The notes: generated from the sequence alone by a model not told the origin. Shown: positions 956 through 22,672, counted from the stretch's first letter. The stretch: 40,532 nucleotides of DNA from Nitrospirota bacterium (GCA_029858565.1 JAOUEV010000031.1:1-40532); one strand, 5' to 3'. Numbers and translations are program-made.

Positions 956-971
956 GGTCACACAATGATTG

Positions 972-995: not shown

Positions 996-1026
996 AGAAT
1001 TTCACTTAGCTCGGATTTCGGTTCTA

Positions 1027-1057
1027 ATTCCACATTCCGAATTCCGAATTCCGCATT
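1027..1057. repeat. Heptamer array, family A (ATTCCG[A/C] x4), abutting the metK stop codon
   Basis: attccac attccga attccga attccgc att. Confidence 0.85.
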
Positions 1058-5894: not shown

Positions 5895-7775
5895 TTAAAT
5901 ATCGAACTTCCTCTCATAGCCCCGGGGCGTGATCATGAGATCGTTCCATCTAAAGGTCTTTGAGTTGCCGATGACCACCGTGGTCTGCATATCGATATCG
6001 CTGTCCTGCATATGGCCAAGGTCCGTCACGATGACCTGTTCCTGCTCCCGCATCGCGCCTTTGACGATGCCCACGACCGTTGCGGCCGCCCGATGCTTCA
6101 GGACGATCTCCCGCGCCCGGTTAATGTGGCCGGCCCTGCCCTTGCTGCGCGGGTTGTACAGCACGATCACAAAATCCGCCGCCGCCGCCGCATCAAGCCG
6201 TTTCTCGATCATTTCCCAGGGTGTCAGGCGGTCGGACAGGCTGATGCAGGCGAAATCATGCATCAGCGGAGCGCCGAGCCGAGAAGCAGCCGCGTTCAGC
6301 GCCGAGATACCTGGAATCACTTCAACAGGAATCGCGGTCTTGCCGTTTATTTCTTTATTACATTCCGCATTCCGCATTCCGCACTCCGCACTTCGTAGCA
6401 CCTCGAACACAAGCCCGGCCATGGCATAGACGCCCGGGTCTCCGCCGCTGATCACGGCGACCGTCCTGCCGGTCCTCGCCAGTTCCACCGCTTTCCTGCA
6501 CCGGTCGACCTCCTGGGTCATGCCGGTCGACAGGACCTCTTTGTCCTTCAGCAGGTCCTGGATAAGATCGAGGTACGTGCCGTACCCGACGATCACGTCG
6601 GCATGCCTGATCGCCTCCCGTGCCGCAGGCGTCAGATGCTCCAGGCTTCCCGGTCCGGTCCCGACAACGAAGATCCTGCCCTTGCGCGCTTCCTTGGCAT
6701 CTTTCTTCCCCACTCCGCACTCCGCACTCTGCTCTGTCTTTATTGCTATTGCCACGGTCACATTCCCTTTCTTCTGTTTCTGCACCAGCAGCCGCCCTTC
6801 TCCGGCCGCGAGCAGCGCCGCAGGTTCGGCCACACCGATCGCGCCTGTTGCCTGAAGAACGATGTCAGACGGCGTAATGCCCTTCACGCTGTTCAGCTCC
6901 TCCGCCCTGAAGGTCCTGAGCAACAGGCCCTGCTTTCTCACAAACCCGACGAGGCCCGGCTCCTCGGCCTTGATATCGATCGTTGCTGCGCAGCACAGGG
7001 ACAGGAAAGCGAGATTATGCTCCGCGAACGTGCTCGCAACAGCTGCCTCGATCTCCTCGGCAGGTGTCCCGCTGTTGCACCCGATGCCTACCACGAGATT
7101 ACGTGGCCGGAGATAGAGCTGTCCCTTTACCCTGCAGGTATCGATCGTACACTTGTCGCCATCCCCCTCATTCTCAGGGGTTTCGCCGTAAGCGTTCCTG
7201 CGATTGGTGATGATGACATCTGCCTGTCGCGGCTCAGCCACCCGGAGGAAATCATCGGGCAGCTGCAGTTCAAGCCCCTGGTCCGGATAGACCCGCAGTG
7301 CGCCGTTGTTCACGTACCTCGTTCCGACCAGCGGCAGCAGGTTATCGTTCTCCACGACCAGATCATGGTCCCGCGCCCAAAGGTCGATCGCAGTCAGACC
7401 GTTGACGTCCGATGCAGTGGTGATGACCGCTTCGCCCTTTATCATGCCCGCGACCTTCCGCGCAAGATCGTTCGCTCCGCCAAGATGGCCGCCCGCCAGG
7501 CTGATCACGTACTTTCCCGCGTCATCGATCACCACCACCGCGGGATCGGTCTTTTTATCCTTGAGCAGCGGCGCAATGGTCCGCACCACAATGCCGGTGG
7601 CCATAATGAACACCAGTGAGGCGTTGTTCTTCCACTGCTTCTCAACGGCTGCAGCAGAGAACTTCAGGATCTCAGCGCCTGGCAATTCTGATTTCAACCG
7701 TTCTGACAGCTCAAGGCCGTTGTTTGTAATATGGAATATGGCAGTGTTCTTCATTCCGCATTCCGCATACGTCAT
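5895..7775 (-). CDS. cbiG-cbiH: CbiG-CbiH fusion (cobalt-precorrin-5A hydrolase / cobalt-precorrin-3 C17-methyltransferase)
   Basis: FIMATGIVVR, DPAVVVIDD, GGHLGGAN and VVGIGC (CbiG). VVGTGPG, SGGDPGVYAM, LGAPLMHDF and MITPRGY (CbiH/CobJ). Confidence 0.95.
   Translation of the reverse strand: MTYAECGMKNTAIFHITNNGLELSERLKSELPGAEILKFSAAAVEKQWKNNASLVFIMATGIVVRTIAPLLKDKKTDPAVVVIDDAGKYVISLAGGHLGGANDLARKVAGMIKGEAVITTASDVNGLTAIDLWARDHDLVVENDNLLPLVGTRYVNNGALRVYPDQGLELQLPDDFLRVAEPRQADVIITNRRNAYGETPENEGDGDKCTIDTCRVKGQLYLRPRNLVVGIGCNSGTPAEEIEAAVASTFAEHNLAFLSLCCAATIDIKAEEPGLVGFVRKQGLLLRTFRAEELNSVKGITPSDIVLQATGAIGVAEPAALLAAGEGRLLVQKQKKGNVTVAIAIKTEQSAECGVGKKDAKEARKGRIFVVGTGPGSLEHLTPAAREAIRHADVIVGYGTYLDLIQDLLKDKEVLSTGMTQEVDRCRKAVELARTGRTVAVISGGDPGVYAMAGLVFEVLRSAECGMRNAECNKEINGKTAIPVEVIPGISALNAAASRLGAPLMHDFACISLSDRLTPWEMIEKRLDAAAAADFVIVLYNPRSKGRAGHINRAREIVLKHRAAATVVGIVKGAMREQEQVIVTDLGHMQDSDIDMQTTVVIGNSKTFRWNDLMITPRGYERKFDI
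6361..6395. repeat. In-frame heptamer array, family A, in a CbiH loop (LRSAECGMRNAEC)
   Basis: cattccg cattccg cattccg cactccg cacttcg. Confidence 0.9.
6711..6731. repeat. In-frame heptamer array, family A, in the CbiG/CbiH linker (QSAECGV)
   Basis: cactccg cactccg cactctg. Confidence 0.8.
7752..7768. repeat. Short heptamer array, family A, at the CbiG N-terminus (YAECGM)
   Basis: cattccg cattccg cat. Confidence 0.7.
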
Positions 7776-8530
7776 TTCCTGAATTCATGCTTGAAATCCT
7801 TATTATAGAGCTTTGATTCTTTCCCGAGCGATTCTCCGGATGCGCGGAGGGACTCTCCCACGTAGATCAATGCGGTTTTCCTTATACCGGCCTCATTCAC
7901 GATCTGCGCGATGTCATTGAGCGTTCCCCGGAGCACTTTCTGCTCCGGCCAGGTCGCCTTCTCAATGACCACCACCGGCGTGTCTCCGGAATAGCCCTGC
8001 AGCAGTTCGTCGCGCACCTTCTCGATCATCCCGACGCTCAGGAAGATCGCCATCGTGGCCTTGTGCGATGCAAGCAGGCCGAGCCGCTCAGGTGCCGGGA
8101 CCGGGGTCCTGCCTTCCATCCGGGTAAAAATGACGGTCTGGCTGATCTCGGGTACGGTCAGTTCCTGCCCAAGGACCGCGGCACCCGCCATGGCGGACGA
8201 TACCCCGGGGATGACCTCAAAAGGGATGTTCAGTTCGCGGAGACGTTCGATCTGCTCGGTAATAGCGCTGTAGAATGAAGTGTCGCCGGTGTGCAGTCTC
8301 ACGACCGACTTGCCGTTCTCCGCTGCTTGTCGCATGACCGCAATGATCCCGCCAAGATCCATCTGAGCGGAATCGTGTATTTCCGCCCTGATGCCGCTGA
8401 GCAGCGCGGGGTTCACCAGGCTGCCAGCGTAGATCACCACGTCAGCATTGTCCAGCGCTTTCCTGCCTTTTATGGTAATGAGCTCCGGGTCCCCGGGTCC
8501 GGCCCCCACAAAGAGTATCTTCTGCATCAT
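7772..8530 (-). CDS. cbiF: Cobalt-precorrin-4 C11-methyltransferase
   Basis: FVGAGPGDPELITIKG, YAGSLV, RLHTGD, ELTVPEISQTVI and SKLY...F.H motifs. Confidence 0.95.
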   Translation of the reverse strand: MMQKILFVGAGPGDPELITIKGRKALDNADVVIYAGSLVNPALLSGIRAEIHDSAQMDLGGIIAVMRQAAENGKSVVRLHTGDTSFYSAITEQIERLRELNIPFEVIPGVSSAMAGAAVLGQELTVPEISQTVIFTRMEGRTPVPAPERLGLLASHKATMAIFLSVGMIEKVRDELLQGYSGDTPVVVIEKATWPEQKVLRGTLNDIAQIVNEAGIRKTALIYVGESLRASGESLGKESKLYNKDFKHEFRK

Positions 8531-9270
8531 TGTTTCCTCACGATCACCAGCGAAAAGTAGTTCAGGTCCCCGCTGCGCACGCGGGTGATGTCCTTTATGA
8601 TGCGCTCGTCTTCCATTCCCGCGCGCGCGACATAGACCGCGCCTGCGGCCAGCCCCATCCGCACCAGCACCTCGCGAACCTCATCAAAGACCTTGTTCAC
8701 CTTCATCAGCACCACCGTATCGAACCGTTCCAGCGTTTCCTGGAGACTGTCCAGATAGTTCGCCGGAAGGATCGCGATCCGGTCGTTCCCCAGTCCCAGA
8801 TACATGCCGGCCTGCGCGGCAGCTGCGGTGATCGACGATATCCCCGGGATGAACTCGATGGTCAGGGCCGGCCTTTGCTCAAGCAAGCGGGAATGAAGAT
8901 AGAAGAAGGTGCTGTAGATGGACGGATCGCCGATGGTGATGAACGCCGCGTCACTGCCTCCGTCAAGCTGTGAAAGGATTGCATCAGCGGCTGCCTTCCA
9001 TTTTGTTTCCAGCTGCTGGTCTGATTCTTCACTCTGCATTCCGCATTCCGCATTTGAGGCGGTTTTCACCATCGGGAAATGCAGCTCCACGATCTTTTTG
9101 CCTTCGACACTTACGGCGCCCTTGATGATCGAGAGTGCCAGGCTTGCCCCTTCCTCCCGCCCCTTGGGAACGCAGAGCACCGGGACGCTCTTGATGATGC
9201 GGGCGGCCTTCAAGGTCAGCAATTCCGGGTCCCCCGGACCTACGCCGACAACGTACAGTTTTCCGGCCAT
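8527..9270 (-). CDS. cbiL: Cobalt-sirohydrochlorin C20-methyltransferase
   Basis: GVGPGDPELLTLKA, FPM, FITIGDPSIYSTF, VVLMKV and NYFSLVIV. Confidence 0.95.
   Translation of the reverse strand: MAGKLYVVGVGPGDPELLTLKAARIIKSVPVLCVPKGREEGASLALSIIKGAVSVEGKKIVELHFPMVKTASNAECGMQSEESDQQLETKWKAAADAILSQLDGGSDAAFITIGDPSIYSTFFYLHSRLLEQRPALTIEFIPGISSITAAAAQAGMYLGLGNDRIAILPANYLDSLQETLERFDTVVLMKVNKVFDEVREVLVRMGLAAGAVYVARAGMEDERIIKDITRVRSGDLNYFSLVIVRKQ
9030..9055. repeat. In-frame heptamer array, family A, in CbiL after the FPM motif (SNAECGMQSE)
   Basis: cactctg cattccg cattccg cattt. Confidence 0.85.
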
Positions 9271-9271
9271 G

Positions 9272-10564
9272 CTATCCTTTCACTCCGGTGACAATATATA
9301 TGGGATTGAGCGCGCTCATCAATCGCTTGCCAGCCACCGGCTTGGAGCGGGAGACCGATATCTCCGACACCTCCGCGCTGTACCCGCATGCTTCGAGAGA
9401 TGCAAGCGCTTCCTGCAGCGTTTCCAGGGTCGCCGCATTGATCACGATGATGCCGGACGTCATCTTTTCCTGAATGTATCGCACGATATCGCTCAGGTTC
9501 CCCCCGCTCCCGCCGATGAACACCCGGTCCGGAGCTGCAAGCCCGGACAGGGCGTCCGGCGCTGTTCCCCGGACGATATCGTAGTTCCTTATGCCACAGG
9601 ATGCGCGGTTGGCCTTCAGGTGGCCGATCTGCTCATCATCCCGCTCAACGGCAATGACCTTGAGTCCCGGGACCATTCGTGCCGCTTCGATGGAGACCGA
9701 ACCGGATCCCGCGCCGATGTCCCACAGCACGCCCTGCTCCGGCAGGCGCAGTTTATGGATCGACACAGCCCGCACTTCGTCCTTGGTGATCAAACCGCGA
9801 GAATGGGAAAGCTCCTGTTCCTTCAGCCCGAATCTCGCGTTGCCTGTCTTTTGTCCCTTGTCGCTCGTCTCTTGTCGCTGCAAGATCACCACATTGGGAT
9901 CAGCGAACTGCATGGCCACGGCCTGTTCAACGGTCCCTGACCAGACGCGTTCTTCAGGATACCCGAGCTTCTCGCAGACATGCATGAGAAGTGCGGAGTG
10001 CGAAGTGCGGAGTGAGGAGTGAAGAACTCGCGCTATTTGAGAGGGATTGTTCTGCTTATCCGTCAGCACGGCAAGTTTTCCGAACCGTTCGAGAAGCCGG
10101 GGAATATCATCGACTTCATAGGGAAGCTTCCGCCGTTTTGCGATATCCGGTCCGCCATGCACGCTGATGCAGAAGGCGTCGTCCCAGGGAAGATTGACCC
10201 GGCTAAAGGCCACCTGCATGCTCGACAGGTCAGGCAGGACCTCCACCCGGTCGCTCCCGAACTCCTCGATCATGCGCCTGCCGATGCCGAAGAAGAACGG
10301 GTCGCCGGAAGCGAGGAGAACAACCGCACCTGGTTCGTTGTTCCCGGCACTCAGTTTATCCCTAATGAAAGCTATCGTCTCCGGCACCTTGTCGATGACC
10401 TTGATGCGGTCTTTTACAGCCTCATACTCGGCATAGCGCTTGAACACGTCGAGCAGTCGGGACGAGGTCAGCAGCACACCGGCTCCACCGACCGTTTCTA
10501 TCGCTTTCTCGCTCAGGGGGCGATAACCGATACCGACAAGAATGAGCCTACCTGCTTTCGGCAA
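9272..10564 (-). CDS. cbiET: CbiE-CbiT fusion (cobalt-precorrin-7/6B methyltransferases, CobL-like)
   Basis: LASGDPFFFGIG, GLITKDEVRAV, WDIGAGSGSVSIE and PDRVFIGGSGG. Probable TTG start at 10564 with an AAGGAG RBS. Confidence 0.93.
   Translation of the reverse strand: MPKAGRLILVGIGYRPLSEKAIETVGGAGVLLTSSRLLDVFKRYAEYEAVKDRIKVIDKVPETIAFIRDKLSAGNNEPGAVVLLASGDPFFFGIGRRMIEEFGSDRVEVLPDLSSMQVAFSRVNLPWDDAFCISVHGGPDIAKRRKLPYEVDDIPRLLERFGKLAVLTDKQNNPSQIARVLHSSLRTSHSALLMHVCEKLGYPEERVWSGTVEQAVAMQFADPNVVILQRQETSDKGQKTGNARFGLKEQELSHSRGLITKDEVRAVSIHKLRLPEQGVLWDIGAGSGSVSIEAARMVPGLKVIAVERDDEQIGHLKANRASCGIRNYDIVRGTAPDALSGLAAPDRVFIGGSGGNLSDIVRYIQEKMTSGIIVINAATLETLQEALASLEACGYSAEVSEISVSRSKPVAGKRLMSALNPIYIVTGVKG
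9844..9878. repeat. In-frame heptamer array, family B (TTGTC[GT]C-like), in the CbiE/CbiT linker (RQETSDKGQKT)
   Basis: ctgtctt ttgtccc ttgtcgc tcgtctc ttgtcgc. Confidence 0.8.
9990..10024. repeat. In-frame heptamer array, family A, reverse orientation, in CbiE (LHSSLRTSHSAL)
   Basis: agtgcgg agtgcga agtgcgg agtgagg agtgaag. Confidence 0.9.
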
Positions 10565-11702
10565 TGATCTCTCCTTCATAGGACACAAGGTGAATAGACA
10601 CGGGAACACCTCCGGTCACTGTTTCGCAATACCTCTTGGCTGCTTTACAAACAAGCCCGATCGAAGACCGGGGATCATGGGCCGTCGTATTGACCAGGTC
10701 AAATATCTCACGGGTCGTATTGAACTCCCGGTCCTTCGGCAGATCCATCCCCAGGGACACCAGGTAATCCCGTGCAGCCTGCGCTTCCAGCGCACCGTGA
10801 CGGACATGTGTCTCGGGCGTTCCCATGGCGATCTTGACCATCTTGGCCCACTGCGCGCACAGATGGACCTTCCGGAAGCCGTGCTTTTTCGCGTCCGCAA
10901 GCGAGAACTCGGCGAAGTCACCCATCATGGCATAGGCTTCGGCCGGAAATGCATATTTCTTCTGGTGGGCCTTCTCCGATGTCCTTCCGGTCGACACCAC
11001 GACCTCGCCGATGCCCTGCGCCTTTGCCACGTCGAACGACGCGGTGATCGTCGCTGTCCAGGCGGCCTCCGACAGCGGCTTGACAATGCCCGTGGTCCCG
11101 AGGATCGAGATTCCGCCAATGATGCCAAGGCGGTGGTTCAGCGTCTTCTTTGCCAGTTCCTCGCCCTGGGGAACGGAGATCGTTATTTCCAAGTGCGAAG
11201 TGCGGAGTGCGGAGTGCGGAATGTCAGTCTTGCATTCACTCACCGCCTCTTGTACCGCAGCAAGGATCATCTTTCTCGGTACTGGATTAATAGCCGCTTC
11301 CCCGACGGGAATCGCAAGACCGGGTTTCGTAACAGTTCCCACGCCTCTTCCGCCTTTTACGTTTATTATCGCTGCATCGCCACTCTGCTCTCCGCATACC
11401 GCGCTTCGCACTTCTGCTACTATCTCTGCGCCATTCGTGATATCCGGATCATCGCCCGCGTCTTTGATCACTGATGCTCGCGCAAACTGTACGCCGTTGT
11501 CAATTCCGCACTCCGCACTCAGAACTCCGAACTGAATCCTGCTGCCGTCCGGAAATGGAATGGTGACTGATTCGATGCGGACGTTACTCCGCACTCCGCA
11601 CTCCGCGCTCCGCACTAGCAACAGCGTCGCCGCCTTCGCTGCCGCAGCAGCGCAGGCGCCCGTTGTGTAGCCGGACCTCAGTTGTTTACTTTTCGATCCC
11701 AC
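10548..11702 (-). CDS. cbiD: Cobalt-precorrin-5B C1-methyltransferase CbiD, carrying four heptamer arrays
   Basis: LRSGYTTGACAAAA, KDAGDDPDITNG, GVGTVTKPGL, AINPVPR and LGIIGGISILGTTGIV. Confidence 0.96.
   Translation of the reverse strand: MGSKSKQLRSGYTTGACAAAAAKAATLLLVRSAECGVRSNVRIESVTIPFPDGSRIQFGVLSAECGIDNGVQFARASVIKDAGDDPDITNGAEIVAEVRSAVCGEQSGDAAIINVKGGRGVGTVTKPGLAIPVGEAAINPVPRKMILAAVQEAVSECKTDIPHSALRTSHLEITISVPQGEELAKKTLNHRLGIIGGISILGTTGIVKPLSEAAWTATITASFDVAKAQGIGEVVVSTGRTSEKAHQKKYAFPAEAYAMMGDFAEFSLADAKKHGFRKVHLCAQWAKMVKIAMGTPETHVRHGALEAQAARDYLVSLGMDLPKDREFNTTREIFDLVNTTAHDPRSSIGLVCKAAKRYCETVTGGVPVSIHLVSYEGEIIAESR
11192..11224. repeat. In-frame heptamer array, family A, reverse orientation, in CbiD (IPHSALRTSHL)
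   Basis: agtgcga agtgcgg agtgcgg agtgcgg aatgt. Confidence 0.9.
11381..11415. repeat. Degenerate in-frame heptamer array, family A, in CbiD (EVRSAVCGEQSG)
   Basis: cactctg ctctccg cataccg cgcttcg cacttct. Confidence 0.7.
11502..11536. repeat. In-frame heptamer array, family A, in CbiD (QFGVLSAECGI)
   Basis: aattccg cactccg cactcag aactccg aactgaa. Confidence 0.85.
11585..11616. repeat. In-frame heptamer array, family A, in CbiD (VRSAECGVRS)
   Basis: tactccg cactccg cactccg cgctccg cact. Confidence 0.9.
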
Positions 11703-12204
11703 GCCGCGCCTGTGTCCCCTTGCTCCAGTAGTGCCTGATCTCTTTCATTTCCGTCACCAGGTCCGCGGCGTCCATGATCCTCTTGTCCGCGTACCTGCCG
11801 GTGATCACCAGTTCCACATCCTTCGGCCTGCTCTGCATGATGTCCAGAAGTTCCTCGACCGACAGGAGCCCGCAATGGACCGCAACGTTCGCTTCGTCCA
11901 TGATGACCAGATCGTACTGACGCTCCCGGAGCGCATCTCTGACCTCTTCATAGCCTTTTCGCGCTGCCCGCAGGTCCGCGACCCCTGGTTTGCGTCCGAT
12001 CAGCAGACCCTTGCCGTATTGCCGGACCGTGATGCTGTCCTCGAACCGTTCCAGTGCATGGTGCTCGCTCGTCCGCCTGCTCTTGATGAACTGAGCGATG
12101 AAGACCTTCATCCCTGCTCCTGCCGCCCTCACCGCCAGCCCCAGGGCAGCCGTGGTCTTGCCCTTGCCGTTACCGGTATAGACTTGGACGAATCCTTTAC
12201 GCAT
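11686..12204 (-). CDS. cobO: Cob(I)yrinic acid a,c-diamide adenosyltransferase (CobO/BtuR)
   Basis: VQVYTGNGKGKTTAALGLA, QFIK, ELVITGR and ADLVTEM. Confidence 0.96.
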   Translation of the reverse strand: MRKGFVQVYTGNGKGKTTAALGLAVRAAGAGMKVFIAQFIKSRRTSEHHALERFEDSITVRQYGKGLLIGRKPGVADLRAARKGYEEVRDALRERQYDLVIMDEANVAVHCGLLSVEELLDIMQSRPKDVELVITGRYADKRIMDAADLVTEMKEIRHYWSKGTQARRGIEK

Positions 12205-13048
12205 GTCGTTCCTCCAGCGTCCTCAGTATCTCCCTCCGCGCTTCGCCGATCGTCAGCGGAACGCGTTCGAACCCGACGCCGTCCTCGTGCTTCAGCCGGT
12301 AAATAAGCTCTGCCATCTGCGGCAACCTAAGCTTCACGTTCTGCATAGTCTCCGGCGCGGTGAACACTTCTTCGGGAGTGCCGCTCCGGGCGATCTTCCC
12401 CTTGCTCAGGATGAACAGCCGCGACAGGAACAACGGCACGAGATCCACGCTGTGGGTCGCCATCACCACGGTCACGCCGCGTTCCCGGTTCAGCTTCATC
12501 AGCAGGTTCATCATCCGGTATTCGCCCATGGGATCGAGCCCCGCCGTGGGCTCGTCGAGCAGCAGGATCTCATGGCCCATGGCGAGCAGCCCGGCGATGC
12601 AGACCCGCTTCCGCTGTCCGAAGCTCAGATGATGGATCGATTTCTTCGCAAGGCCCTCCATGTCCACCTGCTGCAGCGCCGATAGCGCGCGCTGCCTGAC
12701 CTCGCTGTCCGAAAAGCCCATGTTCTGCGGCCCAAAGGACACGTCCTCGAGCACCGTGGGTGCAAAAAGCTGCTCGTCAGGATTCTGGAAAACAAGACCG
12801 ACCTTTGCATAGATCTGCTTTGGCGAAAGCTTGCGCACATCACTCCCGTCAAGAAGCACCGATCCCTTATAGTCCTTTATCAAGCCGTCCATGACCTTCA
12901 GCAACGTGGTCTTGCCCGATCCGTTCGATCCGAGAATGCCGAGGAATTCTCCTTTGCGCACATCAAGAGCGATGTTGCCGAGGGCCTGCGTACCGTCGGC
13001 ATAGGAGAATACATCGATATTCACCGCCAGCCTGGCTAGATCTTCCAT
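12197..13048 (-). CDS. cbiO: Cobalt ECF transporter ATPase
   Basis: GSNGSGKTT, VFQNPDEQLF, LSFGQRKR and LLLDEPT. Likely ATG at 13048. Confidence 0.92.
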   Translation of the reverse strand: MEDLARLAVNIDVFSYADGTQALGNIALDVRKGEFLGILGSNGSGKTTLLKVMDGLIKDYKGSVLLDGSDVRKLSPKQIYAKVGLVFQNPDEQLFAPTVLEDVSFGPQNMGFSDSEVRQRALSALQQVDMEGLAKKSIHHLSFGQRKRVCIAGLLAMGHEILLLDEPTAGLDPMGEYRMMNLLMKLNRERGVTVVMATHSVDLVPLFLSRLFILSKGKIARSGTPEEVFTAPETMQNVKLRLPQMAELIYRLKHEDGVGFERVPLTIGEARREILRTLEERHA

Positions 13049-13788
13049 AACACTCCCAGGCAAATGAGCAGGACCATCGTCATCGCGACTTCATGCAATC
13101 TGAAGGGTTTATGCTTCAGCATCGGCATGGTCCCGTCATACCCCCGCTGCATCATGGCCACGGTGGTGCTCTGGCTGTGATCAAAGGCCTTGATCGTGAG
13201 CGATCCCGCCAATGTGCCGAAGGAGCTTAAGCCCCGCCTCAGGGTCGAATACCCGAGCCGGTTCTTCTGTGCCTGATAGATCACCTGGGCGTCATCAAAG
13301 AGCACGAAGATATACCGGTATGCGAACATCAGTATCTCGACAAATCCTTTAGGGACCCGGAACCAGGAAAGACCGGCGATGAATTCGGCAAAAGGCGTGG
13401 AAAATCCCAGGAGCGCTATCAGCGACACAGCGCTGACGATCCTGTTCGCGATCTGCAGCCCCTCCAGGAATCCGTCCCGATAACCGTTGATCGCAATCCC
13501 CATAAATTGCGCTGAAAACATCGGGTCTTTGCCCGCGAAGAGCAACTTGACCGCAATAATGACTGCAGCAATGAACAGCGGCTCGGAATATCGAAGCAAT
13601 AATACGCGAAGACGAACGCCCATCCCGAATGTGAGAATAAGACAGATCAGCGTTACCAAACCGGGGAAAGCGAATCCCCGATAGCTCAGGATCATCGCCA
13701 GTATCACCAGGGCGGAAAGAATCTTGACCCGCGCATCGATCCGCGCAAGAGCGTGATCAATCCGGCTATGTTCTGTCAGCACATGCAT
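13036..13788 (-). CDS. cbiQ: Cobalt ECF transporter T component
   Basis: IDARVK, AYRYIFVL, QAQKNRLG and AMMQRGYDG; hydrophobic. Confidence 0.92.
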   Translation of the reverse strand: MHVLTEHSRIDHALARIDARVKILSALVILAMILSYRGFAFPGLVTLICLILTFGMGVRLRVLLLRYSEPLFIAAVIIAVKLLFAGKDPMFSAQFMGIAINGYRDGFLEGLQIANRIVSAVSLIALLGFSTPFAEFIAGLSWFRVPKGFVEILMFAYRYIFVLFDDAQVIYQAQKNRLGYSTLRRGLSSFGTLAGSLTIKAFDHSQSTTVAMMQRGYDGTMPMLKHKPFRLHEVAMTMVLLICLGVLWKI

Positions 13789-13816
13789 AAAGCCTTTCGT
13801 ATCTTGATCATATCAT

Positions 13817-14119
13817 CTACCCCTGTGAAGCCTTCTGCTGCTCTCCGCCGGCAAACCGGGGCTTCTCAGTCACCAGCACGCGCCAGTAGTATCCGGCAGC
13901 GAATCCGCCGACTGCTCCGGCCATCAGGAATACGAACAGGAGAAGATCGCCCTGGTCCGTATTGATGATCGGATCACGAGGCTCCCTTCCCTGCTCCTTG
14001 GCGTATTTCTCGACCACGGACTCGTCCACACCTGCCCATTTTTCAGAAGCAGTGACGTGTGACGAGAGACAAGCGACAAGCAGAAACAGCAAAAGACAGA
14101 TCCGCACTCGGAATTTCAT
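13817..14119 (-). CDS. cbiN: Small cobalt transport accessory protein (CbiN-like)
   Basis: Signal peptide, KWAGVDESVVEKYA and a C-terminal TM helix GDLLLFVFLMAGAVGGFAAGYYW. Lies between cbiM and cbiQ. Confidence 0.75.
   Translation of the reverse strand: MKFRVRICLLLFLLVACLSSHVTASEKWAGVDESVVEKYAKEQGREPRDPIINTDQGDLLLFVFLMAGAVGGFAAGYYWRVLVTEKPRFAGGEQQKASQG
14051..14080. repeat. In-frame heptamer array, family B, within the CbiN signal peptide (LVACLSSHVT)
   Basis: agtgacg tgtgacg agagaca agcgaca ag. Confidence 0.8.
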
Positions 14120-14862
14120 ATCGCCACCTCCTCCGGTTTGAGCACGCGCATTTTGACGAGAAGGTCCGGCCGCTTCTTGTACAACAGAACGACCATGCCT
14201 GCGGTCATCGCCCCTTCAAGGATCCCCAGCGGCAGCTGCGTGGGGATGAACGCAAGCAGGATCTTTCCGAAGAGCGGCAGGAAATCCGAGTCGCCGCGAA
14301 TGCCTGCTGCAAGCTCCGCCGCTGTGCTTGCATAGGTCGCCCAGTCGGCAAAAAGACCGGCCATAAACCCTGCAATCAAAAGGTTGGCCTTCAGCGCCCT
14401 CATCGTTCGAAAGGTAATATAACCTGCAAAAGAGCCCACGACCCCCATGGACAGGATATTCGCCCCCCAGGTGCTCAGGCCACCGTGGGAAAGAAAGAGC
14501 GCCTGGATCAGGAGCGCCACAGCGCCCACAAGGGTGCTTATTGCCGGACCAAGCAGGATTCCCGATATCCCTGTCCCGCAGGGATGGGAACAGGTGCCGG
14601 CTGTAGGAACAGGAATCGGCATGCAGGAGATAATGAACACAACCGCCGCCATAAGACCAACAAGGGGCTTGAACGAGAGATCATCTTTTGACAGCTTTTT
14701 GAGCTGATAGAGGCCGAAAGCCATAAAGGGCAACACGACCAGGAACCAGGCAACGGCCCAGTTAAAAGGCAGAATTCCCTCGGATATATGCATGGCATGA
14801 GCGTCAGAGACGAGCGACAAGTGACAAGAGACAAGCAAAAGCGCCATAAAAACATATCGCAT
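14116..14862 (-). CDS. cbiM: Cobalt ECF transporter S component with signal peptide
   Basis: AHA/MHISEGILP, GTCSHPCGTG, HGGLSTWGAN and FIPTQLPLGILEG. Confidence 0.95.
   Translation of the reverse strand: MRYVFMALLLVSCHLSLVSDAHAMHISEGILPFNWAVAWFLVVLPFMAFGLYQLKKLSKDDLSFKPLVGLMAAVVFIISCMPIPVPTAGTCSHPCGTGISGILLGPAISTLVGAVALLIQALFLSHGGLSTWGANILSMGVVGSFAGYITFRTMRALKANLLIAGFMAGLFADWATYASTAAELAAGIRGDSDFLPLFGKILLAFIPTQLPLGILEGAMTAGMVVLLYKKRPDLLVKMRVLKPEEVAI
14806..14835. repeat. In-frame heptamer array, family B, within the CbiM signal peptide (LVSCHLSLVS)
   Basis: agagacg agcgaca agtgaca agagaca ag. Confidence 0.85.
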
Positions 14863-15878
14863 TATCCTATACCTCCGGCAACTTTGAGTAAAGCATTCAC
14901 GATCGCTACTGCCGCGGGCGTACCGCCCTTTCTTCCCAAAGCAGTGATAAAAGGGAACTGCTGCTCTGCTAGCAGCGCCTTGGACTCAACCGCCTTCACG
15001 AATCCCACGGGCACGCCGACAACCAACAGTTCGGAGTTGCGAGTTCTGAGTTCCGAGTTCAGAAGTTCAATCGTTTTCAAAAGTGCGGTCGGTGCATTCC
15101 CGATGACAACAATGCCGATATTAGGATTTTCCTTGAAAGCTTTCTCAATCCCCAGCTCTGCCCTGGTTTTCCCTTCGGGCACCTGTTCATTCGATTCCCG
15201 CCCCTGCGCTCCGGTGTTCTGTATCGCGCAGATCACCTTACCTCCCCACGGATGCATCCACTTCTTGTTAATCCCTGTCCTGACCATCTCAACGTCAGTC
15301 AGGATATCCCTCCCTGCTTTGATCGCAGCAAGGCCGGCAGCAACGGCATCAGGATGAAAGGTCAGCGTGTCCTTGAAATCGAAATCCGCGGTCGCATGGA
15401 TCACCCGCTGCACGATCGGCAAGCGGTCAGCCGGGATCTTGCCCAGGTCCGCTTCAGCGGAAAGGATGTCGAAGCTCCGTTTCTCGATCGCCGCAGGCGC
15501 GAGCGGGTCAGCTGCGCTGATCCTTTCGAGCGCGATATGAGCAAGCTTTTCATGGATCCCGAGCGGCTCGGTGTAGATGAACTGCACGCCGGGATAGGCT
15601 GCGCGAGCCTCGTCGATCATTTCGGGAATGTCCTTGGTCACATGCTGTCCCGCGGTCAAAAAGAACGGGTGCAGGATCACCTTTTTCGCGCCGTCGCCGA
15701 CCGCCTGCTTTATTGCATCAGGGATCTTCGGAGCGGCAAACTCCATGTACGCGACGCGAACGCAGGTTTCCGCACAGCCGGGATGTATCAGCCGGTGGAG
15801 GATGCCTGCCACCTGGTCGAGCTGATTCGCGTCCTTCTTCGGGCTGCCGTGGCCGAGCAGCAAAATACAGTCTTTCAT
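14862..15878 (-). CDS. cbiX-cbiC: CbiX-CbiC fusion (sirohydrochlorin cobaltochelatase / cobalt-precorrin-8 methylmutase)
   Basis: MKDCILLLGHGS, AYMEF.P and PFFLTAGQHVTKDIP (CbiX). IEKRSF, RVIHATADF, IGNAPTAL, PVGFV and GRKGG (CbiC). ATG at 15878. Confidence 0.93.
   Translation of the reverse strand: MKDCILLLGHGSPKKDANQLDQVAGILHRLIHPGCAETCVRVAYMEFAAPKIPDAIKQAVGDGAKKVILHPFFLTAGQHVTKDIPEMIDEARAAYPGVQFIYTEPLGIHEKLAHIALERISAADPLAPAAIEKRSFDILSAEADLGKIPADRLPIVQRVIHATADFDFKDTLTFHPDAVAAGLAAIKAGRDILTDVEMVRTGINKKWMHPWGGKVICAIQNTGAQGRESNEQVPEGKTRAELGIEKAFKENPNIGIVVIGNAPTALLKTIELLNSELRTRNSELLVVGVPVGFVKAVESKALLAEQQFPFITALGRKGGTPAAVAIVNALLKVAGGIG
15027..15061. repeat. In-frame heptamer array (GAGTTCN, family A variant, reverse orientation) in CbiC (LNSELRTRNSEL)
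   Basis: cagttcg gagttgc gagttct gagttcc gagttca. Confidence 0.85.
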
Positions 15879-15882
15879 TCCT

Positions 15883-17238
15883 TCACTTCTCCCTGACGTA
15901 TGAAATAAATTGCGATGCGCACCGGGCATCACTTCCGAAATGCAGGTGGATATAGCTTGCCAGCGTCCGTTTGTACCGGAACCCCTCATCCGGCAAAGCT
16001 TTTCCCCTGCTGTCCGTCACCTGGTATGCACTTCCGGCGTTTACGCCCACGATCTCCGAATAGTGGAATTCGTGGCCTCTCCGAACGTCTCCGGCCCTGC
16101 CGATAATGCTGTCCTCCCGCAGAGCGACTGCGCGATATCCCAGACGAGGCTTGCCAAGCATCCTGGTCTCGAAGGGGAATATCCCGGCCATGGGGAATTT
16201 CACGCCATCCCCTGTTATTGCCTGGGACAGGTACATCAACCCGCCGCATTCTGCGTACATGGCGTTGCCTGACTCGGCCCAGTTGCGGACCGACGCGCGC
16301 ATGGACTCGTTGCGCGATAGCGCTTCGGCATGCAGTTCCGGGTACCCGCCGCCGAAATAGACCGCATCGGCATCGGGAATTGCCTCGTCCGCCAGAGGGC
16401 TGAAATGAATGATCTTGGCGCCTCCGGCGCGAAGCATATCAAGGTTGTCTTCGTAGTAGAAACTGAATGCCCTGTCCCGCGCAATTGCAATCCGCACCGG
16501 TTTGCCGTTCTTCGCGTCCTCCGCGCCTTCTCGGTTATCATTTTCCTTGTTTCTGTTTCCAGCATTTTGAATGATTTTATCGATATTGATACGTTCAAGC
16601 ATGACGTCCGCAAGCCTCGACAGACTTTCCTTGCCGAGCGGATTTTCCTCAACGGTCGTCAGCCCCAGGTGGCGGTGCGGGATTTCGAAGTTCAGGTCGC
16701 GAGGCAAATAGCCAAGCACAGGAATATCACGGACGCTGTTCTTCACTCTCTCGAAATGGCTTTCTGAAGCAACCCGGTTGAATATCACGCCAGCGAAATA
16801 AATTGGCTCTTGTCTTCCTCCGCACTCCGCACTCCGCACTCCGCACTCGACAAAGCCGCGAACCACCGCACCCGCGCTCTCCGCCATGCCATAGGCATCC
16901 ACAACAAGTACCACAGGCAGATCCAACAAAGCCGCAAGTGTTGCCGTACTTCGGTCGCCGTCATAAAGCCCCATAACGCCCTCGACAACCGCGATGTCCG
17001 ATCCGGCGGCATGCTTCGCAAAGCATGCTTTCACATAATCGGGACCGCACATCCAGAGATCGAGATTCCGGGATATCTGATCAGCAGCCAAACGATGCAG
17101 TCCCGCATCGATGAAGTCCGGACCGGCCTTGAAGGGTTGAACCGCAAGCCCCTTTTTCCGCAAGGCGGCCATGAGGCCGAGCGTCACCGTGGTCTTCCCG
17201 GATCCGCTGTGAGTGCCTGCGACAACTATGCCGCCCAT
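15883..17238 (-). CDS. cbiA: Cobyrinate a,c-diamide synthase
   Basis: GTHSGSGKTT, FKAGPDFID, VEGVMGLYDG, PHRHLGL, GGGYPELH, AECGGLMYL and GHEFHYS. Confidence 0.96.
   Translation of the reverse strand: MGGIVVAGTHSGSGKTTVTLGLMAALRKKGLAVQPFKAGPDFIDAGLHRLAADQISRNLDLWMCGPDYVKACFAKHAAGSDIAVVEGVMGLYDGDRSTATLAALLDLPVVLVVDAYGMAESAGAVVRGFVECGVRSAECGGRQEPIYFAGVIFNRVASESHFERVKNSVRDIPVLGYLPRDLNFEIPHRHLGLTTVEENPLGKESLSRLADVMLERINIDKIIQNAGNRNKENDNREGAEDAKNGKPVRIAIARDRAFSFYYEDNLDMLRAGGAKIIHFSPLADEAIPDADAVYFGGGYPELHAEALSRNESMRASVRNWAESGNAMYAECGGLMYLSQAITGDGVKFPMAGIFPFETRMLGKPRLGYRAVALREDSIIGRAGDVRRGHEFHYSEIVGVNAGSAYQVTDSRGKALPDEGFRYKRTLASYIHLHFGSDARCASQFISYVREK
16818..16850. repeat. In-frame heptamer array, family A, in CbiA (VECGVRSAECG)
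   Basis: ctccgca x4 perfect, then ctcga. Confidence 0.92.
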
Positions 17239-17257
17239 GAGATATCATGCTCCTTCA

Positions 17258-18259
17258 TCAGAGGCTCCAAAGCGCCGCTGCTGCCGCGGCCAGCGCAGTT
17301 GCCATAATCGACGCCAGGGACGCCAATAGCAATGCTGTCCTGGCAGACTCCTGATAGTCAGAGTTGCCGGCGTCTCCGATCCAGGGTTTTTCAACAAGAA
17401 TGCCGCCATAAGTCGATGGCCCGCCGAACCGCACTCGCAACGCTCCTGCCATGGCTGCCTCAGGCACGCCGCTGTTCGGGCTTGTATGGTTTCTGCCGTC
17501 GCGACGCATGATTGCATAAGCGTGGCACATCTCACCAAAGACGCTGCCGGGTTTCTTCACGAGCCCATAGGCAAATACCGCTGCCACGATAAGAAAGCCC
17601 GTTATCCGCGCTGGGATATAGTTCGCCGCATCGTCCAGCCTGGCCGCTGCCCGGCCGAAATTCAGGTACCGCGCATTCTTGTATCCTACCATGGAGTCGA
17701 GCGTGTTCACTGCCTTATACGCCAGGGCAAGCGGAAGACCGCCGAGAGCCAGATAAAAAAGCGGCGCGACCACGCCGTCCGAAAGATTCTCAGCAAGCGA
17801 CTCGATCGCAGCCTTCAGCACGCCCTGTTCATTCAGGGTTTTCGTGTCCCTGCCAACGATCATGCTGACGTTCCTACGTCCGGCCTCAAGGTCGCCGGTG
17901 CCGATCGCATCAACGACGCCTTTTACCGACGAGATCAATTCCCGCGCCGCAATCGTCTGGGCAATCAGGAATACAAGGACCAGCGGTCCGATAACGGTCA
18001 TCCCTGCGGCAGCAGTCCTGTTCAGGAAATCAGTTGCCAGCGCTGCCAATAGATAGACCGGAAGAACAATGACAAGGACCAAAACCACACCGGCCAGACG
18101 TTCCCCTCGCGGCGTAGAACAAAACCGGCGAAGCGCATTTTCGCAGGCGCTGATGGCCCGTCCGATGAACCTCACCGGATGGGGCAGCCAGGCAGGATCG
18201 CCGATCAGAAGATCGAGCGCACCGGCCAAAAGCACCTGTGTTGCGGTGACCGGAATCAC
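17258..18259 (-). CDS. cbiB: Adenosylcobinamide-phosphate synthase
   Basis: LDLLIGDP..PHPV, IVGRDT, ESLAENLSDGVVAP, NTLDSMVGY and SPNSGVPEAA. The GTG start overlaps the cbiP stop. Confidence 0.95.
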   Translation of the reverse strand: MIPVTATQVLLAGALDLLIGDPAWLPHPVRFIGRAISACENALRRFCSTPRGERLAGVVLVLVIVLPVYLLAALATDFLNRTAAAGMTVIGPLVLVFLIAQTIAARELISSVKGVVDAIGTGDLEAGRRNVSMIVGRDTKTLNEQGVLKAAIESLAENLSDGVVAPLFYLALGGLPLALAYKAVNTLDSMVGYKNARYLNFGRAAARLDDAANYIPARITGFLIVAAVFAYGLVKKPGSVFGEMCHAYAIMRRDGRNHTSPNSGVPEAAMAGALRVRFGGPSTYGGILVEKPWIGDAGNSDYQESARTALLLASLASIMATALAAAAAALWSL

Positions 18260-19767
18260 AGGAGTCCCTCGATGAATTCCAAGTCCACGTGCTGCCGAAA
18301 TACATCTGCCAGCCGGTCAAGAGCGCTCTCGATACTAGCCCCATAATTTACTCCACTCTCGAACGGAGCCAGTCCTTTCCGCACACGGACCTGATTGAGA
18401 ACACCGCGCCGGAACGCGTCATTGTCGAATATCCCGTGCAGATAAGTCCCCCAGCAATTATTGTTCATGGAACCGTCGAGAACAATCGCGGAATCTCCAT
18501 CTGACCTTTTGATCTTGAAAAGACCGATTTCTCCGATGCTCGTCCCCATATGAATCTCATAACCTGCAATCGGAGATTCGCTGTTCCAATCCGCAATCCG
18601 CAATCCGCAATCCGCAATCAAATGCGCTTCCGACCAGCAGGTTATCTTCTCTTTATCGAACCTCGTCTCGATGTTCAGGAGACCTATGGCGTCCATGCTC
18701 CGGTGTTCGCTCTCGACGCCGTGGTGATCGTCAATCCGTTTCCCGAGCATCTGATAGCCGCCGCAGATGCCGATGATCTGCGTACCCTTGGCAAATGCCC
18801 GCCGGATAGATTCGTCCAGATGCTGTTCCTTAAGCTGCAGCAGATCGGCAACCGTATTCTTCGATCCCGGCAGAATGGCCAGGTCGGCATTCTCGATATC
18901 CTCGGATCGGTCGGAATATTGGAGCATGGCATCCGGTTCCAGCATAAAGGGATCAAAGTCCGTAAAGTTCGAAATTGATTTCAACCGAACCACTACGATC
19001 CTTACCGCTTTACTTTCCGCACTCCGCACTCCGTACTCCGCACTCCGTGCCAACGCCAGCCCGTCCTCCTCCGGCAGCCCCATATTGGTGATATAAGGAA
19101 GCACGCCGATCACGGGCTTGCCGGTCTTTTCGCGGATCATGTCCAGCCCTGGATCAAGGATCGCTTTATCGCCGCGAAACTTATTGATAATAAATGCCTT
19201 GATACGATTGCTATCCCGCCCGACCAGTTTGACCGTGCCGTAGAGCGATGCGAACACGCCGCCCTTGTCGATATCGCCGACCAGCAGCACAGGCGCTTTC
19301 GCATGCCGTGCCATGGACATGTTCACAATGTCCACATCTGCCAGGTTGATCTCCGCCGGACTGCCTGCGCCTTCCATGATAATAAGATCGTGCTTCGCAG
19401 CAAGCCGTTTATAGGATGTCTTTACGGTCTTCCACGCCTCGTCACGAAACGCATAGTAATCCCGTGCCTGCATGGTTGCATGGACCTTGCCCCGCAGGAT
19501 CACCTGGGAACCGCGCTCACCCGCTGTTTTAAGCAGCACCGGATTCATATCCACCGACGGTTCGAGACCGCAGGCGCGCGCCTGGAGCACCTGCGCACGA
19601 CCGATCTCTCCCCCTTCGATTGCGATGGCAGAATTAAGAGCCATGTTCTGCGCCTTGAAGGGCGCGACATTCATGCCCCTGTCCCGGAATATCCGGCAGA
19701 GCGCGGCGACGAGAAGGCTCTTGCCCGCTCCGGAACCGGTGCCTTGTATCATTAACGCTTTGCTCAA
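18256..19767 (-). CDS. cbiP: Cobyric acid synthase (CbiP/CobQ)
   Basis: MIQGTGSGAGKS, FKAQNM, EGAGSPAEINL, SNFTDFDP, GICGGYQMLG, GYEIHMG and GTYLHG. Probable TTG start at 19767. Confidence 0.96.
   Translation of the reverse strand: MSKALMIQGTGSGAGKSLLVAALCRIFRDRGMNVAPFKAQNMALNSAIAIEGGEIGRAQVLQARACGLEPSVDMNPVLLKTAGERGSQVILRGKVHATMQARDYYAFRDEAWKTVKTSYKRLAAKHDLIIMEGAGSPAEINLADVDIVNMSMARHAKAPVLLVGDIDKGGVFASLYGTVKLVGRDSNRIKAFIINKFRGDKAILDPGLDMIREKTGKPVIGVLPYITNMGLPEEDGLALARSAEYGVRSAESKAVRIVVVRLKSISNFTDFDPFMLEPDAMLQYSDRSEDIENADLAILPGSKNTVADLLQLKEQHLDESIRRAFAKGTQIIGICGGYQMLGKRIDDHHGVESEHRSMDAIGLLNIETRFDKEKITCWSEAHLIADCGLRIADWNSESPIAGYEIHMGTSIGEIGLFKIKRSDGDSAIVLDGSMNNNCWGTYLHGIFDNDAFRRGVLNQVRVRKGLAPFESGVNYGASIESALDRLADVFRQHVDLEFIEGLL
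18587..18619. repeat. In-frame heptamer array (CAATCCG x4.7) in the CbiP GATase domain (LIADCGLRIADW)
   Basis: caatccg x4 perfect, then caatc. Confidence 0.92.
19013..19047. repeat. In-frame heptamer array, family A, at the CbiP synthase/GATase junction (ARSAEYGVRSAES)
   Basis: ctttccg cactccg cactccg tactccg cactccg. Confidence 0.9.
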
Positions 19768-19904
19768 TTTCTGTTTTCCTCTACACAAAACAATGTTAAC
19801 CACGGGCGGCTGCGCCGCACACGGACAAGTTCAAAATTAGTCATTTTTGATTCCATCTGTGTGTCATGACAAAGTCATGACCCGTGGTTCCCAAGTTTTT
19901 TCTG

Positions 19905-20975
19905 TTACTGCACCGGCTGTTCAGCGTTCTTTTCCGACACCCCTGCTGATGAAAACGTCGCCATCTCGCTTAGAATGCGCAGGCTTGCCTCGACCAGCGA
20001 AATCCCGAGTGCCGCGCCGGTACCTTCGCCGAGCCGCAGGTTCAGGTCCAGAAGCGGCCGCTGTTCCAGGCGCTCCAGCATCTTCCGGTGGCCGATCTCG
20101 ACCGATTGATGGGCAGCGATGATGTAATCTTTCACCGCGGGACAGAGTTCCGCTGCGATCAACGCGCCGGCAGTTGAGATGAAACCGTCCACAACGACCG
20201 GGATTCTGTACAGCGCAGCTCCGAGAACCAGTCCTGCAATCCCGCCGATCTCGTATCCTCCCACCTTGGCCAGCACATCAAGGGCGTCTTTTCGATCCGG
20301 CTGGTTCAGTTGAATTGCTTTTCTGATCGTCGCGACCTTGCTTTTAAGTCCTGCGTCGTCGATACCGGTGCCCCTGCCCGTTACCAGTTCGGGATCTGTT
20401 CCCGTGATCACCGATACGATTGCAGATGACGGCGTGGTATTACCGATGCCCATGTCGCCGGTCCCGATGATGTCCAGACCTTCGCGGTACTTTTCCACCA
20501 AACCCACGCCCGCCAGGATTGATTCTTCAGCCTGTTCCCGCGTCATGGCCGGACCAACAGCCATGTTTGCCGTACCTTTGGCGATCTTCCGTATCTCCAA
20601 TCCTTCGGCAGGCTCGAAATCATGGTCAACACCCATGTCCACCACGATCACCCGGGCGCCCGCATGGCTGGCGAGCACATTCACGCCCGCGCCGCCGCGC
20701 AGGAAGTTGTAGACCATCTGTGGGGTCACTGCAGCCGGGAACGCACTCACGCCCTCCGTCGTCACGCCGTGATCTCCCGCGCAGGTGAAGATGATCTTCT
20801 TTTTGATTACCGGCTTGTCCTTGCCGGTAATCAGGCAATACCGCTTGGCCAGCTCTTCGAGGCGGCCCAAGCTTCCCTGCGGCTTGGTCAGGTCGTCGAG
20901 CTGTGCCTGAATCGCGTTCGTTCGCGAGCCGTCAACGGGCTTGATATGTGCAATGACTTCTTTCAATGTTTTCAT
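19905..20975 (-). CDS. cobT: Nicotinate-nucleotide:benzimidazole phosphoribosyltransferase
   Basis: LTKPQGSLGRLE, DHGV, GDMGIGNTT, VVVDGFI and LRLGEGTGAAL. ATG at 20975 with an AAAGGAG RBS. Confidence 0.96.
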   Translation of the reverse strand: MKTLKEVIAHIKPVDGSRTNAIQAQLDDLTKPQGSLGRLEELAKRYCLITGKDKPVIKKKIIFTCAGDHGVTTEGVSAFPAAVTPQMVYNFLRGGAGVNVLASHAGARVIVVDMGVDHDFEPAEGLEIRKIAKGTANMAVGPAMTREQAEESILAGVGLVEKYREGLDIIGTGDMGIGNTTPSSAIVSVITGTDPELVTGRGTGIDDAGLKSKVATIRKAIQLNQPDRKDALDVLAKVGGYEIGGIAGLVLGAALYRIPVVVDGFISTAGALIAAELCPAVKDYIIAAHQSVEIGHRKMLERLEQRPLLDLNLRLGEGTGAALGISLVEASLRILSEMATFSSAGVSEKNAEQPVQ

Positions 20976-21016
20976 TTTTATCTCCTTTAGGATATTCGAT
21001 TCGTTTTTTATCGGCA

Positions 21017-22327: not shown

Positions 22328-22468
22328 AGGTCCGCTCCTTGCGCATATGCGCGATACTGCATGAGACCGCGCATTCCTTTTTCTCGCCGGCCAATTGTAT
22401 CGTGCGGCGCCTATGACGACCGTGTGAATACTGAAATGATCATACGAGACTCCTTTTACGCGAAGATC

Positions 22469-22650: not shown

Positions 22651-22672
22651 TCCGTTTCATTACAATTTTTTG

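Follow-up and report, generated by a model that had tools for sequence, protein, structure and literature searches.

Dispersed arrays of about four tandem heptanucleotides have been noted for decades in Geobacter, Xanthomonas and cyanobacteria, without a mechanism. In Geobacter metallireducens, the 49 Gmet_H4 elements consist of four tandem GGACCGG heptanucleotides located in and between genes, and the passages describing them suggest a global regulatory role (Aklujkar et al. 2009, PMC2700814). The GGGNATC and GGGGA(C/T)T repeats of Xanthomonas and Nostoc number about 190 copies and are described as preferring four units, being in excess in non-coding DNA, lying less than 50 bp past stop codons with a coding-strand bias, and having lineage-specific units (Rehm et al. 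2015, PMC4692102). Here, we describe a family of CGGANTG arrays in a 40,532-nt stretch of DNA (GCA_029858565.1, JAOUEV010000031.1:1-40532; the window, with positions counted from its first letter), which is contig C76 of a 3.92-Mb genome in 144 contigs (G000) and carries an anaerobic cobalamin (cbi) operon. Cyanobacterial heptamers of the STRR type are said to go back to work by Mazel in 1990. The closest named relatives of the encoded CbiD are Nitrospirota metagenome-assembled genomes (54-56% identity), and the lineage is probably Nitrospirota; our literature search found no account of heptamer arrays in this phylum or in cobalamin operons. An earlier annotation of this DNA had tentatively linked heptamer arrays to four-helix-bundle genes; the term "four-helix" is absent from the main text of PMC2700814. 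We propose, with a probability of about 0.55, that the arrays are a non-autonomous dispersed module, spread and homogenised by conversion-type copying, chiefly between neighbours, and tolerated in-frame in loops.

Tandem Repeats Finder placed period-7 arrays at 15 distinct places in the window, 14 of them in 6361-19047 and one at 1026-1057, and none of its four rows to the right of 19047 has period 7. A low-threshold scan gave 16 period-7 runs, 15 in 5895-19803 and one at 1034, with none in the right-hand 20.7 kb (19804-40532), as the first-pass annotation of this DNA had noted for the right-hand part; periods 5, 6, 8, 9 and 10 gave 1-7 evenly scattered runs apiece. Two consecutive CGGANTG units with at most two mismatches were matched 42 times, compared with 6.75 +/- 2.87 in shuffled sequence (0 of 100 shuffles reached 42), and 37 of these matches lie in 6361-19047 and three in 1026-1053. 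The arrays are thus not random microsatellites, in agreement with the annotation. The window holds 15-17 period-7 arrays in all, every one of them inside the riboswitch-controlled cbi operon or to its left (Table 1). This minus-strand operon spans cbiGH up to the ThiC-like bzaF and comprises bzaF-like, cobT, cbiP, cbiB, cbiA, cbiXC, cbiM, cbiN, cbiQ, cbiO, cobO, cbiD, cbiET, cbiL, cbiF and cbiGH. Pfam agrees with the host-gene identities assigned earlier, and the array abutting the metK stop was found where it had been described. The previous count of sixteen arrays in nine open reading frames (ORFs) needs qualification: cbiN has just two units, the fourth cbiD array is a degenerate remnant, and 7752-7768 probably lies between cistrons. 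A remnant reported inside the second riboswitch was not recovered: no two-unit match with at most two mismatches occurs in 22457-22941.

A genome-wide period-7 scan combined with an operon enrichment test, which the annotation had proposed, found the family throughout the genome and densest in the cbi operon. With strict settings, G000 yielded 118 period-7 arrays, compared with 0-38 for the other periods among 4-13. A relaxed scan gave 213 period-7 arrays of any unit, of which 132 belong to family A, defined as lying within one mismatch of CANTCCG/CGGANTG; its units include CACTCCG (43), CAATCCG (42), CATTCCG (16) and CACTTCG (12). Family A is divided between long ORFs (78 arrays) and intergenic DNA (54), and the 17% of the genome called non-coding contains 52 of the 118 strict arrays. 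Array length has a median of 28 nt in genes and 27 nt between them, with a mode of 32 nt and nearly no array above 34 nt. Among the 75 arrays of at least 27 nt, 56 open with ANTG or GANTG ahead of the first full CGGANTG unit, and the commonest form, ANTG(CGGANTG)4, measures 32 nt and accounts for 17. Arrays begin abruptly on the left (5') and fade gradually on the right. Given their fixed length and sharp 5' edge, the arrays behave as a module, unlike an open-ended microsatellite. At the variable position, CGGA-ATG, CGGA-GTG and CGGA-TTG are common and CGGA-CTG is rare in every context (6 of about 400 units). The unit also includes GGA(G), the core of the Shine-Dalgarno motif in this genome. 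GGAG and GAGG are the local cores, about 5-fold enriched upstream of starts. A reading of the arrays as start-codon/Shine-Dalgarno cassettes was nevertheless rejected; antisense mid-gene arrays show the same scarcity of -CTG (1 of 59 units), which is therefore a property of the family.

Outside genes, the arrays lie a median of 10 nt from the upstream stop codon, with 18 of 44 distances no greater than 4 nt, and the next start is a median of 79.5 nt away. When an array lies at most 30 nt past a stop, CGGANTG is on the coding strand in 29 of 31 cases (binomial 4.6e-7); the stop precedes the first full unit by 2-8 nt in 22 of these 29 sense arrays and sometimes falls within a degenerate extra unit. 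Inverted partners within 200 nt are found on the 3' side of the G-rich strand for 44 arrays and on the 5' side for one. Relative to shuffled sequences, folding is much stronger at paired loci (median z -4.2); two thirds of the intergenic arrays are singletons, which have no unusual fold (median z 0.2). The same placement recurs among seven clustered tRNA genes (Pro, Arg, His, Arg, Arg, Lys and Leu; C14:127,800-129,400 of G000, L111:15865-17310) whose spacers contain arrays. There, sense-type arrays follow four tRNA 3' ends at 5-17 nt, all four in the same orientation, and antisense-type arrays stand ahead of two tRNAs, so that each of these tRNAs could sit inside a stem.

Inside genes, arrays occur only in frame, in either orientation (22 sense and 21 antisense among mid-gene family-A arrays), and encode 7-12 residues in variable loops, linkers or N-termini. 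An alignment of CbiD with 10 orthologues places its arrays in variable regions. In an AlphaFold2 model of CbiD (mean predicted local distance difference test score, pLDDT, 83.6), three of the four array sites fall in low-confidence or variable loops: aa 30-39 (helix end and loop), aa 100-112 (loop, pLDDT below 50) and aa 161-171 (loop, pLDDT about 51); aa 57-66 form a confident beta-hairpin. These alignments and the model bear out the view that the peptides are lineage-specific additions or replacements. The peptides read earlier (ECGVRSA, ECGMRNA, DCGLRIA and RTPHSAL) are direct translations of the units, and every host ORF is indeed open. That the units lack stop codons on both strands is correct, but unremarkable, as 8264 of 16384 heptamers (50.4%) do so.

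The cbi operon contains 10 of the 73 mid-gene arrays, compared with 0.33 expected (Poisson 3e-12). Mid-gene clustering persists when cbi is left out (10 pairs at 0.3-3 kb versus 2.6 expected, p 0.0005), and HypF and a NifEN-like gene carry about one array per kb, like the cbi operon. The operon is therefore the densest and largest cluster, special in degree rather than in kind. Together with the unit variants shared between neighbours described below, this agrees with the locus-biased process inferred from the window. An operon-specific tag, the other interpretation offered then, does not fit a family found genome-wide and in intergenic DNA, in HypF and the NifEN-like gene at similar density, in relatives lacking cbiD and on phage contigs. 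Other hosts are diverse, namely transglutaminase-like, LeuA-like, PrmC, LolA, PBP1, pseudopilin, hybrid kinase, transketolase-like and MlaE genes in addition to HypF and the NifEN-like gene. Neither codon score (p 0.16) nor GC content at third codon positions (p 0.13) distinguishes host genes from the rest, and gene length alone sets them apart. Weak codon bias or foreign composition was accordingly discarded as the cause of the cbi enrichment, since ordinary values for both measures do not support weak expression or foreign origin.

The comparison was extended to related genomes (labelled G) and metagenomic relatives (M126-M131), with L denoting retrieved DNA stretches and C contigs. CGGANTG pattern matches occur in 22 of 31 related genomes, counts that underestimate arrays where the units of a genome have drifted: G001 has four matches, yet three arrays of other units at its HypF locus. 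In four CGGANTG-poor genomes, the HypF loops hold remnant-like peptides without arrays. The gene cbiD is present in four of the 19 genomes of the family searched (G000 included), all four with arrays through a syntenic operon; the other three operons contain 10 arrays in 19.4 kb (G003), 16 in 20 kb (G009) and about 10 (G008). In a different family, cbiD carries five arrays in G019 and two in G028, with AAGGGTC and GGGGCAT as units, and the array family is also found in relatives that lack cbiD. Of the exact pattern matches listed for G009, 4 of 37 are within the cbi operon; in G003, 14 of the 100 matches listed, out of 152, are on the cbi contig; and in G008, where the cbi arrays form their own CAGGAGT family, the operon has 7 of 35 CAGGAGT-type matches. 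Among 160 cbiD loci of diverse organisms (2.16 Mb), just 19 contain a strict array, which makes the arrays a trait of particular lineages and not of cbi genes generally.

Protein alignments show that orthologous loop sites are occupied in G000, G003, G009 and M126-M131, and often by remnants in G008. In cbiD, cbiET, cbiA, cbiP and cbiGH, and likewise in HypF and the NifEN-like gene, the same sites hold different, internally uniform variants, and periodicity is kept despite about 30-40% protein divergence. At the third cbiD site, for instance, the same peptide phase is encoded by differing units: HSALRTS (CACTCCG) in G000, QSAIRNP (CAATCCG) in G003, NSEFRIP in G009 and KSEIRIP in M129, with remnants in M127 and M128. 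The cbiA comparison for G009 covers the translation outside a run of X at about 5018-5118 of L092, which may reflect undetermined or masked bases. These sites are filled across four genera as well as in metagenomic relatives, which makes the cbi arrays old rather than recent. The unit variant is particular to each genome, and this points to concerted evolution instead of plain inheritance or slippage. Parallel point mutation of four units is not credible and unit slippage is barred in frame, which argues for a rewriting of arrays as blocks. Neighbouring arrays share a unit variant more often than expected, in 15 of 24 pairs less than 300 nt apart (7.9 expected, p 0.003) and in 47 of 100 pairs less than 5 kb apart (33.4 expected), and four of the five exact matches to pure (CGGATTG)3 in G003 are in its cbi operon; exchange between arrays thus looks local. 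We found no near-identical metagenome contigs that would compare filled with empty sites, the best CbiD match being 68% identical.

Phages carry such arrays as well. The four-unit pattern occurs on 44 phage and provirus contigs of IMG/VR (L215-L258), on which 170 period-7 arrays were counted; they belong to many unit families besides CGGANTG, again with a mode of 32 nt (31 of 170). One 13.3-kb contig (L238) has 14 arrays, several of them 1-6 nt past stop codons, in a head-module operon that encodes the major head protein and a head-tail adaptor, with the arrays between the genes. The contigs of two sequencing runs both end at the long arrays, so that the comparison of unit numbers is confined to arrays outside coding DNA. 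A relative of about 97% identity (run X2) has one additional CATTCCG unit (+7 nt) at 7751, seen in one contig (depth 5.5 of 7.8), as the sole difference in unit number. As +7 nt would shift the frame and the conserved CbiG N-terminus begins at the ATG that ends the array, the array at 7752-7768 is most likely intercistronic. Contig joints between arrays (for example 6387 to 18587 and 11220 to 16821) are read as de Bruijn ambiguities at shared 31-mers and not as rearrangements. Arrays at contig ends, which might signal instability, are not enriched (4 of 213 compared with 2.3 expected).

Based on this body of comparisons, we propose the following scenario for the conversion-type copying introduced above: (i) ectopic gene conversion or template switching, rather than slippage of single units, would copy the modules and re-homogenise them in blocks; (ii) exchange would be strongest among neighbouring arrays, so that a locus already bearing arrays would gain and retain more of them; (iii) the cbi operon would be the largest cluster of such exchanging arrays; and (iv) the arrays would contribute nothing to the enzymes and serve as loop filler. 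Several points weigh against it. We found no copying enzyme or process, and conversion is deduced rather than observed. The strict sense orientation and after-stop position look like functional constraint, which a selfish or neutral model does not predict, and so does the placement between phage head-module genes. At some sites, an array replaces a loop of equal length without adding residues, and there a simple insertion model fails. The enrichments in G003, G008 and G009 stem from inherited sites and do not count as independent replicates. Gene calls for G000 came from our own crude caller, which assigned 82.6% as coding and overlooked cbiXC. Finally, the comparison of host genes offers no cause for the size of the cbi cluster.

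The apparent constraint outside genes is what would be expected if the modules were cis-elements, either a sense-read intercistronic or 3'-end RNA signal (for processing, stability, translational coupling or Rho protection) or an operator array whose cognate protein would bind 7-bp heptads in the manner of the omega repressor of plasmid pSM19035. Where cbi genes overlap and leave no intergenic space, signals would then be embedded in permissive codons. Such elements would account for the sense arrays tight against stops and tRNA 3' ends, the arrays between phage head-module genes, the periodicity that persists at orthologous sites, the constant length whatever the unit, and the genome-specific variants, which sites co-evolving with a trans factor would give. 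The after-stop coding-strand bias in the passages of Rehm et al. (PMC4692102) and the regulatory proposal in those of Aklujkar et al. (PMC2700814) point in the same direction. However, orientation is neutral in mid-gene arrays and about half sense, half antisense in the cbi arrays of G003, which argues against an RNA-level role there, and most intergenic arrays are unpaired. Moreover, no Rfam family matches the arrays (Rfam returned riboswitches only in the window and tRNAs only at the tested array loci), no candidate binding protein was found, and several relatives have kept the host genes with arrays decayed to remnants. We consider cis-elements possible, but less probable than conversion-type copying. 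A related view, to which we give somewhat less credence and which we regard as unlikely, is that a lineage-specific trans-acting machinery (a templated polymerase, recombinase or conversion system) writes and rewrites 32-nt modules into any resident DNA, including intergenic sites past stops, permissive codons and phage genomes. The modules would then be sense-strand intercistronic signals and the coding copies collateral. Such a machinery would explain why length does not depend on the unit, why the 5' edge is sharp, how variants switch genome-wide at orthologous sites and why remnants are left in lineages that have lost the activity.

The coding arrays invite two other readings, both highly improbable in our judgement. 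If the arrays were contingency loci, slippage by one unit would flip the frame and switch single cbi genes, since 7 is coprime to 3 and a one-unit change inactivates the gene. The precedent is the neuO heptanucleotide variable-number tandem repeat, a single locus for which the relevant passages report 3-53 units, frame switching by slippage and a cyclic 7-residue peptide encoded by three units (PMC13001214). The arrays described here share with neuO, as so described, a 7-nt unit in a coding region and the cyclic peptide, and the one-unit difference at 7751 could be taken as such a switch. In contrast to neuO, they occupy many loci, are capped at about 4.6 units with equal length inside and outside genes, and leave every host ORF open in G000, G003, G009 and G008. 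The sole variable array is probably non-coding, contig ends show no enrichment, and sixteen switches in one operon would mostly produce dead operons. Selection for the peptides themselves, for instance as loops in cofactor enzymes that coordinate cobalt or other metals through Cys or His (ECGVRSA, HSALRTP), would fit the Cys every seven residues from sense units and the His from antisense units, and metal cofactors are handled by all three of the most array-dense hosts examined (the Cbi enzymes, HypF and the NifEN-like protein). Yet the same sites in relatives read GSRVKGQ, QFKVQSS, GSQKSEG or HAPCPMP, in which neither Cys nor His is conserved, about half of the family is non-coding, and the remaining hosts are functionally diverse. 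Chance microsatellites or an assembly artefact deserve practically no weight: short-k assemblers do break at arrays, but the two-unit matches far outnumber those in shuffled sequence, only period 7 is in excess, and the same sites are filled in independently assembled genomes and metagenomes.

Among dispersed bacterial repeats, REP and REPIN elements are short, non-autonomous and present in hundreds of copies, form inverted hairpin pairs downstream of genes and are associated with RAYT transposases. The arrays resemble them in inverted hairpin pairs, non-autonomous dispersal and lineage-specific sequence. In contrast to REP/REPIN, their arms are tandem heptamers instead of imperfect palindromes, and they are not extragenic, with 78 of 132 family-A arrays inside ORFs. 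A RAYT as mobiliser was rejected, as Y1 transposase (PF01797) matches do not track array abundance among these incomplete genomes: G016 and G018 have none with 63 and 65 pattern matches, and G001 has five with four pattern matches. Rickettsia palindromic elements are selfish palindromes of 100-150 bp whose survivors in ORFs are in frame at permissive sites, a likeness to the present arrays, which differ in being 32-nt tandem modules; we know of no study of concerted evolution at orthologous sites for those elements.

The closest match is with the four-unit heptanucleotides. The present family has a 7-nt unit, about four units per array, tens to hundreds of dispersed copies and a non-coding, after-stop sense excess. 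As far as the published descriptions go, Gmet_H4 is alike in unit length, unit number, dispersed copy number and unexplained function, and differs in its unit and phylum; the passages on Gmet_H4 report no operon enrichment, cross-genus persistence at orthologous sites, concerted evolution or after-stop rule (PMC2700814). With the GGGNATC repeats, as they are described, the family shares dispersal, the four-unit preference, the non-coding excess, the after-stop coding-strand bias and units that are specific to a lineage. The GGGNATC units carry G3-4 tracts interpreted as G-quadruplex formers, whereas CGGANTG has GG only. The four-unit rule here cannot, therefore, depend on G-quadruplexes. Judged by these shared features, the family is of the same kind as Gmet_H4 and the GGGNATC repeats, a known yet unexplained class. 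The lineage offers a comparative handle on that class, since identical array sites can be traced across genera, metagenomes and phages, and the comparison adds the fixed 32-nt module, a G-quadruplex-independent after-stop sense rule, in-frame survival in loops and concerted evolution. A copying process or binding factor, if found, would explain a widespread class of bacterial repeats and a source of loop insertions in enzymes. For annotation, arrays can mislead start-codon calls and break short-k assemblies.

Table 1. Period-7 arrays and associated features of the window (strand given as + or -; a point where it is unassigned).
Feature	Position	Strand	Remarks
CGGAATT/CGGAATG units; abuts metK stop, upstream of S-adenosylhomocysteine (SAH) riboswitch	1026..1057	-	pairs with degenerate downstream partner, z -4.4
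Anaerobic cobalamin operon	5895..22327	-	Pfam, ORFs
cbiGH array, aa 462-472 (SAECGMRNAEC), sense	6361..6392	-	5' half of an in-frame inverted pair kept in G003 and G009
CbiG-CbiH linker array, aa 349-355 (QSAECGV), sense	6707..6729	-	
Array 3 nt past cbiF stop, just before conserved CbiG N-terminus (MKNTA)	7752..7768	-	probably intercistronic
cbiL array, aa 73-79 (NAECGMQ), sense	9036..9054	-	
TTGTCCC-type (family B) array, CbiE-CbiT linker, about aa 244-253	9851..9879	.	Tandem Repeats Finder only
cbiET array, aa 196-207 (LHSSLRTSHSAL), antisense type	9985..10022	+	orthologous site in G003 and G009; remnant in G008
cbiD array, aa 161-171 (IPHSALRTSHL), antisense type, low-confidence loop	11191..11220	+	site and phase identical in G003, G009 and M129; remnants in M127 and M128
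cbiD degenerate remnant, about aa 101-107, loop with pLDDT <50	11381..11401	-	intact arrays there in G003 and G009
cbiD array, aa 57-66 (QFGVLSAECG), encodes beta-hairpin	11505..11533	-	orthologous site in G003, G009, M126, M129 and M131, each with other units
cbiD array, aa 30-39 (VRSAECGVRS)	11586..11616	-	about 10 residues longer than outgroups; orthologous site in G009, M126, G019 and G028; remnant in G008
cbiN weak two-unit GACAAGC run (14 nt), aa 13-18	14068..14081	.	doubtful member
Family-B array (GACAAGN), cbiM N-terminal segment, aa 10-19	14806..14835	.	
AGTTCCG/AGTTCGG array, cbiXC, aa 310-320 (LNSELRTR)	15028..15060	+	
cbiA perfect array, aa 131-141 (ECGVRSAECGG)	16818..16848	-	orthologous site in G003 and G009; remnant in G008
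cbiP perfect (CGGATTG)4.7, aa 395-406 (LIADCGLRIADW)	18587..18619	-	degenerate remnant in G009
cbiP array, aa 253-263 (RSAEYGVRSAE)	19016..19047	-	orthologous site in G003; also in G008, where the unit differs
Two tandem cobalamin riboswitch aptamers	22457-22676 and 22758-22941	-	at operon head; no heptamer array inside

At the head of the operon (21017-22941), the tandem cobalamin riboswitches are followed by the ThiC-like (BzaF-type) gene adjoining cobT, and elsewhere in the window (869-2213), metK is followed by its after-stop array and then by the SAH riboswitch ahead of the next gene. In G009, an 830-nt gap between cbiET and cbiL (C20:14049-14879, in L092) gives a weak, stop-interrupted match to a Y1 transposase (23 bits) and may be the remnant of an insertion sequence within the cbi operon. 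Elsewhere in G000, the spacers of three inverted array pairs (C41:368-477, C131:73193-73356 and C3:1177-1363) have in common a second, internally palindromic repeat (CTCCCTCTCCC...GGGAGAGGG, then GGGGTG-rich sequence). Period 8 is the second commonest class in the strict scan of this genome (38 arrays) and recalls the octanucleotide repeat sites of Geobacter.

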